DNA of 64,000 nucleotides from assembly GCF_003334355.1 (NCBI RefSeq), contig NZ_QOWP01000002.1; one strand, given 5' to 3'. Below, piece after piece: positions 34,101 through 36,330 of the stretch. Within the stretch, counting starts at the first letter, position 1, and each line of letters begins with the position of its first letter. The translations under genes were made by a program, and so were the position numbers. The notes under the pieces were generated by a model. The model did no database searches and was not told the DNA's origin. It saw only the letters and a program-made list of their open reading frames with translations. Source of the DNA: Escherichia coli. GTDB taxonomy: Bacteria > Pseudomonadota > Gammaproteobacteria > Enterobacterales > Enterobacteriaceae.

Positions 34101-35773
34101 ATGAGGATCTCTTTGGTGGTGGTGACGCGATACGCCGCGCCGTCACTGGCGGAGACGGTTAACAAATAGCGGCTCGGTTTATCGGCGGCGGGGAGATTTA
34201 ACGTCACATGACCGCTGGCGTCGGACACCGTTTCGCTGCCTTCCAGCGACACGGGGAAACGTCCGGCATAACGCAAATCGTTACCGACCATTGATAATTG
34301 CTGAGCGCGCAAACTTAACTGCACGCGGGCATTTTTTACCGGCTCGCCATCCGGGTAGAGCAGTTGCAGTTTGCCGCTGACCGCTTCGCCAGTTTTGAAC
34401 TCTTTTTTGTCGAGAGCTAAACCAATCTCGAAATGTGGCTTGATGTAGTTTGCCACGCGAAAACTGCTGCTATAGACCTGATTGCGGTAAGCAAGACGTA
34501 ACTCATAACCTCCGGCTACGGCATTTTCTGGCAGGCGGAAACTTCCCTGCCCGCCATTGCGCGCATCCAGCGTGACATCGACGGTTTGCAACAGACTGCC
34601 GTTAGCGTCCAGCACCGAAAGCTTCGCCGGGGCGCTGACGATGGGGGATGAATGCAACGGATCGTGGAACTCGCGGCCCATCACTTTAACATCGACACGA
34701 TCGCCTGCGCGATATAGCGGGCGATCGGTAAAAATATACAAGCGGGTGTTGTAGATTTCGCTTTCGTAGAAGAAGTTCTCGGAGACAAAAACGCCGCCTT
34801 CAGCATCCTTACCCAGAATGTATGAACGTTCTGGCGATATATGTTGTAACTGCAAGGTACCGCTGTCATCGGTCACACCGCGGGTCATCACGCCAAGACC
34901 GTCAGTCCACAAGATCTCTGAGCCGGGCTTCGCTTCACCCTGTTTTTTACCCGCGGTCCATACCAGAAGCTCGTTACCTGACACTTTGCTAAGCGCCACG
35001 GTATCGGAAACAAACACCACCGTCGTCGCCCGATACCCACCAACCATCGCCTCGACGAGGTACAGTCCCGGCTCTTGTTGGCCGAGAGGAATATAAATGT
35101 TACCCGGCTGCGGCGAGATGAAATTGCTGGATGCGCCTTCCAGTTTTACCCCTTGCTGCGGCTCGACCGGTTTAGTCTGCCATAATGGGTAACGGAACTG
35201 TTCCACCAGTGGATATTTTTTCAGCGGGGAAAACTGGTTGTTCTGTACATAACGGGAAGGTTTAATAATGGCATGGCCGAGCTGTAATTCGGGTAACGCC
35301 TGAGTCACATTCTGCCGTGACTGAGAAGAGAAAGTACGCTGCATCACGCGGCGAGATTTGCCGTACCAGTTATCCCACAGCCAGGTCAGCGTATTGTTCA
35401 GCCCGTCGCCCAGATATTGCGGTTGCACCACAATGCGATGCAGGTTTTTCTGCTGGCGCAAAAATGCCATCGGGTCAGGAATACGATACAGGCGAACGTC
35501 CACGCCGCCGTACTCTTCCATCTGATAGCGCCGATAATCACGCCCCGGCGCTTCCAGTCGCACTTTCGCCTCTTCACTGCTGCTAAAACTGCTGTCAGCA
35601 AGCAAAAAGAATGTTCCCCCGGCGGGCGGCGCATAGTTACTGGAAGGAAGCGAATCATCAGCTTTAGCAAGCCCTGTTCCCACAAGAGACAGGGACAAGC
35701 ACGCTGCTATCGCGCCAGAAAATTTAAACGATAAATGCCAATGAAATTGGGATTGGAATCGTTGGGTATCCAT
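31169..35773 (-). CDS. yfaS: Alpha-2-macroglobulin-like protein YfaS (no thioester motif), intact ORF
   Basis: Uninterrupted 1534-1539-aa ORF (tracked ORF starts at 35788; the second ATG at 35773 has a GGAAGGA SD 6 nt upstream); N-terminal signal peptide; large A2M-family protein; no CxEQ and only one Cys outside the signal region. Confidence 0.88.
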
Positions 35774-36330
35774 CGGGTGTCCTTCCATGTCATAAGTTGT
35801 TGCAGACTGACTGCGCGCATTCCGTTGTCAGTTTTCGTGGCGCTTCCGGTGTGGTAGATGACGTAACGCCCCATCCAGACCATTAAGTGCTGGGCATCGC
35901 CCTGATCGAAAAAAATCATATCGCCAGGCAGCGCCTGGTTTATGTCCTGGCCAATAAACTGGCTGTTGTACTGAATCAAATTAATCGCGGTCACGTAGGG
36001 GCCGGTTTTCCCGTTCCCCTGATTCCAGTTTTGTGCCAGTTGACGCTGTTCAGGTGTTAGCGTCATCTCTGGCGGCAAATACTGGTTAGATAAACCGTTA
36101 CTTTTTAGCCATTTACTGTCGTGAACTTTCAGCGTCTCGTTCGCCGCAAATCGCACCAGGCCCGCACAATCCTGCTGATACCAGCGTGGACTTGGCCCCT
36201 GGCGGAGCTGTTCTTGTGCAATGCGTACAAACCAGGCGCGAAACAGCCCGGCTTGTTCGACATTCAGCATTTCGCTATGGGCAACAACACAACACAGCCA
36301 GCAAATCAGCGCCAGCAGCCCGTGCCTCAT
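35707..36330 (-). CDS. yfaT: Exported protein YfaT (DUF1175 family)
   Basis: 207-aa protein from the internal ATG ([20 protein letters not shown] signal peptide); start overlaps yfaA stop (ATGA); 3' end overlaps yfaS start by about 67 nt. Confidence 0.8.

Follow-up and report, generated by a model that had tools for sequence, protein, structure and literature searches.

The gene for the alpha-2-macroglobulin (A2M) YfaS in Escherichia coli likely begins inside the gene that precedes it. The DNA analysed here is a stretch of 64,000 nucleotides (nt) from contig NZ_QOWP01000002.1 (RefSeq assembly GCF_003334355.1), hereafter the window, in which yfaS follows yfaT on the minus strand. The start that best accounts for the evidence is the ATG at 35773, which lies 67 nt inside yfaT and would be recognized through the Shine–Dalgarno (SD) sequence GGAAGGA. 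We consider it likely that this is where E. coli yfaS starts, and that the overlap is old and maintained by selection. Of yfaS, the stretch that the two genes share encodes only the front of a predicted signal peptide.

Relative to yfaT, yfaS is read in the -1 frame, and its ORF extends without a stop over 1539 codons from 35788 to 31169 on the minus strand. It overlaps yfaT by 82 nt when measured from its first ATG (35788..35786) and by 67 nt from its second (35773..35771). The position of the yfaT stop is fixed, because the YfaT C-terminus is conserved to its final residue (19 homologues). The long overlap, to which an earlier note on this DNA had drawn attention, is real and not an artefact of open reading frame (ORF) calling, and both of its lengths follow from the coordinates. 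We name the candidate starts by their distance from the end of yfaT, as -82, -67, -4, +8 and +23 (Table 1).

The -67 ATG is the sole candidate start in E. coli that has an SD. A 6-nt spacer (CACCCG, 35779..35774) separates it from GGAAGGA. The duplex with the anti-SD sequence is predicted at -5.5 kcal/mol for the -67 ATG, compared with +1.3 for the -82 ATG, -1.5 for the -4 ATA, -1.5 for the +8 TTG and +0.6 for the +23 GTG. Averaged over 84 orthologous loci, the values are -5.4 (-67), +1.2 (-82) and -0.3 kcal/mol (-4), and the yfaT background is -2.4 kcal/mol. The earlier claim that the second ATG alone has a good SD thus holds.

Table 1 Features of the yfaT/yfaS junction and its operon, in window coordinates
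Feature	Position	Strand	Description
yfaA	38015..36327	-	DUF2138 (MagB); 562 amino acids in RefSeq
yfaA/yfaT junction	36327..36330	-	ATGA stop/start overlap, typical of tight operon packing
yfaT	36330..35707	-	MagC/DUF1175, NlpC/P60-like; 207 amino acids; stop TAG 35709..35707; ORF equals the RefSeq coding sequence
Conserved nucleotide block	35764..35802	-	CAACAACTTATGACATGGAAGGACACCCGATGGATACCC; 39 nt, yfaT codons 177-189; read as an embedded initiation region
Upstream in-frame ATG (-82)	35786..35788	-	No SD; possible minor start
Shine–Dalgarno GGAAGGA	35780..35786	-	Built from YfaT codons W182-K183-D184 (TGG AAG GAC)
Possible hairpin	35718..35786	-	GGAA of the SD and CGAUGGAU (holds the -67 AUG) pair with AUUUAUCG...UUUC, yfaT codons 197-205
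yfaS	31169..35773	-	Type II alpha-2-macroglobulin, MagD homologue; proposed start ATG 35773..35771; 1534 amino acids
Dual-coding overlap	35707..35773	-	67 nt; YfaT residues 186-207 and stop; YfaS pre-protein residues 1-22
Predicted signal peptide	35660..35773	-	38 residues; n-region, core at about residues 16-35, AKA and then DD
ATA codon (-4)	35708..35710	-	Site of the ATGA stop/start overlap of most Pseudomonas; E. coli reads cgATAG
TTG (+8)	35696..35698	-	Candidate start, unlikely; no SD; inside the hydrophobic core
GTG (+23)	35681..35683	-	RefSeq A2M start; probably incorrect; no SD
yfaS/yfaQ junction	31171..31166	-	TAA, then GTG at once
yfaQ	31168..29519	-	YfaQ type (MagE)
yfaQ/yfaP junction		-	TAA, 4 nt, ATG
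yfaP	29514..28738	-	YfaP type (MagF)

A search with YfaT homologues yielded 80 genomic loci, with at least 500 further loci detected, and extra loci were added by exact-protein look-up. The comparison rests on 84 close loci from Escherichia, Superficieibacter, Enterobacillus, Yersinia, Edaphovirga, Salmonella, Aeromonas, a Methylococcales metagenome-assembled genome and 72 Pseudomonas. Start-codon and SD counts refer to these 84 loci, and codon-column counts to 81. The -67 codon is ATG in all 84. At -82 there are 78 ATG, five CTG (Aeromonas and four Pseudomonas) and one GTG, the latter in Salmonella, where an in-frame stop follows. The P. aeruginosa-type locus (L091) also has both upstream ATGs and the SD.

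The -4 codon is more variable, with 72 ATG, nine ATA and three CTG. In the 81-locus set the corresponding numbers are 70, eight and three. An ATG at this position creates an ATGA overlap with the yfaT stop; E. coli reads cgATAG in place of cgATGA. Such a start abutting the yfaT stop is absent from E. coli and present in 70 of 81 orthologues, mostly Pseudomonas. ATA occurs in five Escherichia loci (the window counted), two Superficieibacter, Salmonella, and P. flavescens L029 and L040. Escherichia, Superficieibacter and Salmonella thus appear to have lost the ATGA coupled start and to carry ATA instead. In Salmonella, where a stop follows -82 before -67 is reached and the -4 codon is ATA, the -67 ATG is the sole start that keeps a basic n-region. 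In lineages without the -4 ATG, the ratio of nonsynonymous to synonymous substitution rates (dN/dS) of yfaS is 0.05-0.09 at dS 0.8-2.2 in Escherichia–Superficieibacter comparisons; this strong purifying selection shows that the gene stayed in use. A later start that nearly removes the overlap, the ATGA at -4, does exist in most Pseudomonas, but the codon is ATA in Escherichia. When the orthologues are examined for such a later start the overlap stands in E. coli, and the -67 ATG is accompanied by its SD in 84 of 84 loci.

More distant relatives vary in this respect. One locus (L090, 53% identity) has GGGAGGA ahead of its -67 ATG, from which its signal peptide MAAHVRQPKLHWIFPLLFSFLLTGFSLLVGGSGALA is encoded in full, and the -82 codon is CTG. 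Another (L087, 49% identity) has GTG at the -67 position and no -4 ATG; an exchange of ATG and GTG, as it appears here, is typical of real starts. Like Salmonella, these two loci offer no start other than the one at -67. Three distant MagC relatives (L086, L088 and L089, 47-52% identity) have no -67 start; an ATGA or an ATG farther downstream serves them instead, so the embedded start is not universal in the DUF1175–A2M family. From this sampling, it is a feature of the clade of YfaT and MagC proper and of some others, not of all DUF1175–A2M pairs.

Codon choice in yfaT carries a second line of evidence. The -67 ATG is made of the third base of the Arg186 codon and the TG of Trp187 (cgA TGg). 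Arg186 is CGA in 81 of 81 loci, although this codon makes up 1.4-1.8% of Arg codons in the same genes of the 72 Pseudomonas loci (G+C content at third codon positions, 0.82), also when conditioned on a following T. Gln178 is CAA in 81 of 81 (25% expected from the genes' own usage), and residue 181 ends in A in 77 of 81, with ACA for 71 of 71 threonines (0.8% expected). Lys183 is AAG in 79 of 79 Lys codons. Ile188 is ATA in 76 of 81 (1-2% expected), and Pro189 is CCC in 80 of 81 (20% expected). Among the 178 codon columns of yfaT, 188, 181 and 186 deviate most from typical usage. Third-position entropy is 0.27 bits over codons 177-193 and about 0.8 elsewhere in the gene, and synonymous variation in the 39-nt conserved block is about one third of the gene average.

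These patterns were compared with a null model in which synonymous codons were drawn for the last 30 YfaT positions at the frequencies found in the genes themselves. An ATG arises at -67 in 1.9% of recodings (100% observed), at -82 in 3.6% (93% observed) and at -4 in 11% (86% observed). The recodings indicate that the -67 ATG is selected and not forced by the YfaT sequence. The 21-residue peptide read in the -1 frame acquires a stop in 23% of recodings, compared with none in the 72 Pseudomonas loci, and its mean net charge is +2.1 in these loci and -0.26 after recoding. This overlap peptide looks selected for its charge and for remaining open.

The A-ending rare codons ACA, CGA and ATA could instead serve YfaT itself or an RNA element (a slowly translated patch close to the YfaT C-terminus, a regulatory hairpin or an RsmA/CsrA site on the GGA motifs), with no role in a start. 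Neither E. coli nor Pseudomonas uses any of the three often, RsmA regulates the mag operon of P. aeruginosa, though through the magA leader (PMC3735191), and a possible hairpin spans the block. However, what is constrained at residue 181 is the nucleotide A, whichever amino acid is encoded (ACA, AAA or CAA), and not all of these codons are rare. The conservation of CAA at Gln178 and AAG at Lys183 fits an A-rich initiation region and an SD better than a translational pause. This explanation would also leave Escherichia and Salmonella yfaS without a plausible start despite the low dN/dS given above. We regard it as very unlikely.

Folding gave the hairpin as the minimum free energy (MFE) structure for E. 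coli and for five of the eight further loci. It is 96% pairable in 25 diverse loci, yet it shows almost no covariation (two compensatory pairs) and is not the MFE structure in three lineages. The fold z-scores in E. coli are -0.94 (201 nt) and 0.05 (101 nt); neither is significant, and local structure of significance was rejected for E. coli. An Rfam search returned no match at E≤1, which speaks against a known RNA family. A promoter scan of 35400..36500 found no sigma-70-like site on either strand, and an internal promoter was likewise rejected. The pair between A of CGA186 and U of TAT200 could be replaced by the common codons CGG and TAC, yet this pair-preserving combination never occurs, which points to the ATG and not the pairing as what fixes the A of CGA186. 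We treat a real consensus hairpin as a weak possibility.

The protein that would start at -67 has the features of an exported protein. Counted from the -67 Met, the hydropathy profile shows a hydrophobic core at about residues 16-35, with Arg5 and Lys17 before it and AKA/DD after it. The mature N-terminus is conserved in orthologues as [DE][DE]x[LV]PxSxY. From the AxA rule, we infer cleavage after Ala38. E. coli YfaS is predicted to be periplasmic via this cleavable signal peptide, and MagD is exported to the P. aeruginosa periplasm via an N-terminal signal peptide (PMC3735191).

In P. aeruginosa, the literature points to a different start. The P. aeruginosa-type locus encodes a 36-residue signal peptide from the -4 ATG, with an internal Met11. 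The -4 ATGA appears to be the working start in this species, where a 36-residue signal peptide fits the 2013 MagD constructs, from which the first 37 residues were removed. A 2018 paper gives MagD a 21-residue signal peptide (PMC5764988). The effective MagD start and the length of its signal peptide are thus not settled between the 2013 and 2018 literature. The MagD papers give location and signal peptide only and no start mapping, and the Mag papers (including PMC3735191 and PMC5764988) do not mention an upstream start or an overlap.

In many Pseudomonas, up to four in-frame starts (-82, -67, -4 and +11) precede one signal-peptide core. The last of these is an extra in-frame ATG 11 nt past the magC stop (MLRICS...), which occurs in the fluorescens group (L027, L035, L055 and others).

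The databases do not agree on where E. coli yfaS begins. RefSeq features were mapped via the chromosome of E. coli 2013C-4991, which is 100% identical to the window. RefSeq, annotated by the Prokaryotic Genome Annotation Pipeline (PGAP), starts yfaS at GTG 35683, 23 nt past the yfaT stop, giving 1504 amino acids and no overlap. A 1534-amino-acid form that starts at the -67 ATG occurs in other NCBI records of the same 90% cluster, which is dominated by 1504-amino-acid forms. The start that the earlier note had called ambiguous is therefore ambiguous in the databases too. None of 52 RefSeq E. coli genomes, taken as two evenly spaced samples from about 5,380 carrying the locus, has an A2M coding sequence that overlaps yfaT. 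Of 5382 E. coli genomes, 5180 share the 130-nt junction at 99% identity or more, so variation within the species is uninformative. Gene callers also differ by taxon, placing the A2M start at -4 in the Methylococcales genome, at -67 in Aeromonas and at +23 in a Salmonella assembly.

If the RefSeq/PGAP annotation were right, translation would begin at GTG 35683 or TTG 35698, there would be no overlap, and the upstream ATGs would be by-products of YfaT Trp codons. The GTG is annotated in RefSeq E. coli genomes, the form it yields prevails in its cluster, and long annotated gene overlaps are often mispredictions. Neither codon has an SD, however, and neither is conserved as a start even within Escherichia and Superficieibacter. 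The GTG is not kept as a start in E. albertii, Superficieibacter or Pseudomonas, and the TTG is missing in Escherichia sp. E1V33, E. whittamii and E. albertii. In a family that is periplasmic, both would remove most or all of the hydrophobic core: the TTG is residue 26 and the GTG residue 31 of the pre-protein, and the N-terminus that begins at the GTG has no hydrophobic core. Such a start would also leave the invariant CGA at Arg186 and the conserved synonymous block unexplained. We regard this model as extremely unlikely, and the RefSeq start at GTG 35683 is probably wrong. The late start drops the signal peptide and would mislead localization predictions and construct design.

The first ATG at 35788 could be the main start, with the second merely encoding Met6 of a longer protein and an overlap of 82 nt. 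Its conservation in 78 of 84 loci through rare A-ending codons at YfaT residue 181, which only 3.6% of recodings reproduce, and a CA-rich, A-rich stretch upstream of it point in this direction. The -82 ATG has no favourable SD duplex in E. coli or on average, however. Salmonella has a GTG there with a stop before -67, and Aeromonas, four Pseudomonas and the distant locus with the signal peptide starting at -67 have CTG. A 1539-amino-acid form of the exact yfaS sequence of the window has no database record. We consider it unlikely that the -82 ATG is the main start.

A third alternative is that E. coli restarts at the yfaT stop, via the ATA at 35710 or a nearby TTG, and that the -67 site is kept for another purpose. 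The -4 position is an ATGA start in 70 of 81 loci, all other junctions of the operon are of the stop/start kind, and weak codons close to a stop can serve for reinitiation by the ribosomes that terminate there. Initiation at ATA is very inefficient, however, and the protein that would begin there (IAACLSL...) lacks a charged n-region. In Superficieibacter and Salmonella, basic residues resembling an n-region lie downstream of the ATA and upstream of any other start, a pattern that the -67 start would explain, and in Salmonella the -67 ATG is the only usable start. We give a restart at the yfaT stop very little weight.

We therefore favour an SD-led start at the -67 ATG, embedded in yfaT within an A-rich context, as the point at which ribosomes would begin yfaS. 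The start codon would exist solely through the use of the rare CGA for Arg186 ahead of Trp187. The 22 overlapped yfaS codons would supply only the basic front (n-region) of a long Sec signal peptide that is removed on export. A conserved YfaT C-terminus and a second reading frame could coexist because the overlap codes only for this cleaved front. The family seems to possess two routes to an A2M start. One is the SD-led internal site, and the other is the SD-less ATGA at the yfaT stop in most Pseudomonas, which appear to keep both. Escherichia, Superficieibacter and Salmonella would depend on the internal site, because the ATGA route was lost to ATA.

The evidence is for an SD-led site embedded in yfaT, and translational coupling is a further step that we infer from it. 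Ribosomes translating yfaT would help by opening local structure around the site. If the hairpin is real, ribosomes finishing yfaT would open the site and so couple the two genes. Fresh binding of a 30S subunit to the embedded site seems likelier than a terminating ribosome moving far backwards. In P. aeruginosa, MagD forms 1:1 complexes with MagA, MagB and MagF, and a stable complex with MagC was not obtained (PMC5764988). The earlier note had suggested that the overlap could set the stoichiometry of the two proteins; a fixed ratio of YfaT to YfaS therefore has no known structural rationale.

Several points weigh against a -67 start. First, the 84 sequences share ancestry and cannot be counted as independent events, although saturation has been reached at other synonymous sites. 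Second, the SD is moderate, and about 7% of yfaT background positions reach -6 kcal/mol. Third, the -82 ATG is equally strikingly conserved without an SD, for which this model gives no explanation. Fourth, a start site within a translated ORF is occluded part of the time. Fifth, a start at the -4 ATG, which P. aeruginosa studies have used, gives most Pseudomonas a fully adequate signal peptide, and the -67 site may be secondary in most of them. Finally, N-terminomics supplements contain no entries for yfaS, yfaT or yfaA, and INRI-seq supplements contain no yfaS or yfaT entry and just one unrelated yfaA entry; the literature searched yielded no ribosome-profiling record of yfaS or yfaT.

A programmed -1 frameshift within the overlap, fusing YfaT to YfaS, was also considered. 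Ribosomes slipping by -1 in yfaT would end up in the yfaS frame, and E. coli has a canonical slippery heptamer in the yfaT frame, T_TTA_AAT at 35728..35722 on the minus strand, with A_AAT_TTT 3 nt further. These heptamers occur in only four to five of 81 loci, all low-GC and of the Escherichia type, and in none of the Pseudomonas. In a fused protein, a periplasmic domain would precede the YfaS signal peptide and leave it buried, and no stimulatory structure is evident downstream of the slippery site. The frameshift was rejected on the lack of conservation, and the heptamer probably arose by chance. The probability that we assign to such a fusion is negligible.

We speculate, with low expectation, that the tandem AUGs, the GGA-A-GGA arrangement of the SD and the hairpin that could hide them form a conserved switch that sets A2M synthesis apart from that of the upstream genes. 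Such a switch may act through RsmA/CsrA binding to the GGA motifs. Alternatively, it may act through the choice between an SD-led and a stop/start-coupled start, which would give different signal peptides and the same mature protein. The alternative signal peptides could possibly confer different targeting kinetics.

Among the closest known systems is the magABCDEF operon of P. aeruginosa (MagC, PA4490; MagD, PA4489), which shares gene family and gene order with the E. coli operon. The P. aeruginosa-type locus resembles E. coli in its -82 and -67 ATGs and SD. The two differ in that the P. aeruginosa working start is the ATGA at the magC stop, where E. coli has ATA, and in that the E. coli operon has no magA-type first gene. 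Coupled overlaps of the ATGA/TAATG kind follow the same operon logic at E. coli yfaA/yfaT and Pseudomonas magC/magD. In contrast, the proposed E. coli yfaS start lies 67 nt upstream of the yfaT stop and has its own SD.

Long out-of-frame overlaps on the same strand, with a start inside the first gene, are found in the MS2 lysis gene, phiX174 and mok/hok. As in these cases, yfaT/yfaS has two frames over tens of nucleotides, a second start within the first gene and constrained synonymous sites. Unlike them, it belongs to a chromosomal operon for large periplasmic proteins, and the overlap encodes a disposable n-region. Autotransporters and two-partner secretion proteins carry an extended signal peptide region (ESPR), an N-terminal extension of about 20 residues before a classical n/h/c signal peptide that is a conserved protein motif with its own function. 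The predicted pre-YfaS signal peptide is likewise unusually long (38 residues). Unlike the ESPR, its extension owes its sequence largely to the YfaT C-terminus, translated here in a second frame, and selection seems to act only on its charge and openness.

We view yfaT/yfaS as a well-supported new example, on comparative grounds, of the known overlaps with an embedded start, for which a correction of RefSeq is likely. It would provide a clean and deeply conserved exception to the rule that treats long gene overlaps as annotation errors. It would also illustrate how such an overlap is tolerated, namely by confining the doubly coded stretch to a disposable signal-peptide n-region. Synonymous codon optimization or clean deletion of magC/yfaT would destroy a start site of the downstream macroglobulin gene. 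Loss of MagD processing has been reported for a magC deletion (PMC5764988), and loss of such a start site could confound phenotypes of this kind.

The locus is a type II bacterial alpha-2-macroglobulin (Mag/Yfa) operon. ORFs and RefSeq features place five minus-strand genes, yfaA-yfaT-A2M(yfaS)-yfaQ-yfaP, between gyrA and atoB. YfaS has no CxEQ motif, no lipobox in its first 60 residues and two Cys in 1534 amino acids. The partner genes of the DUF2138, DUF1175, YfaQ and YfaP types are all present and in the expected order. Upstream of the E. coli operon lies gyrA, and a magA-type gene is absent there. A search of YfaT against known structures matched MagC (PDB 7BK8, E=9e-104), and YfaS orthologues carry the Pfam domains MG2, A2M_BRD and A2M. 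RefSeq names the yfaS product 'alpha-2-macroglobulin family protein'. The GC content of the operon (0.51-0.55) is ordinary for E. coli, and a foreign composition was rejected.

The yfaS frame is intact in the window strain (1539 codons), unlike in the K-12 derivative MC1061 (L002), where the annotation treats the alpha-2-macroglobulin gene as a pseudogene interrupted by an internal stop. The yfaT/yfaS junction is unaltered in K-12-type strains.

The operon is patchily distributed in Enterobacterales, where it occurs in Escherichia, Superficieibacter, Enterobacillus, Yersinia alsatica, Edaphovirga, Chania, and some Serratia and Salmonella. The MagC proteins of Pseudomonas share 70-78% identity with E. 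coli YfaT. Together, the distribution and this identity suggest horizontal spread of the operon.

The first gene of the operon also has more than one candidate start: the longest yfaA ORF begins at TTG 38063 on the minus strand, and RefSeq uses ATG 38015. The 148-nt spacer between gyrA and yfaA (38016..38163, minus strand) contains three GC-rich inverted repeats, AAGGGAGCTATCTCCCTT, CCAGGCTGCAAAGTCTGGGCTTTTG and GGGCACGG...CTGTGCCC. These are probably the gyrA terminator and elements resembling repetitive extragenic palindromic (REP) sequences. A hairpin resembling an intrinsic terminator, AACGCCCGATAACTTTCGCTATCGGGCGTTTTTGTT, lies directly 3' of yfaP (28660..28737, minus strand) and marks the end of the five-gene operon.

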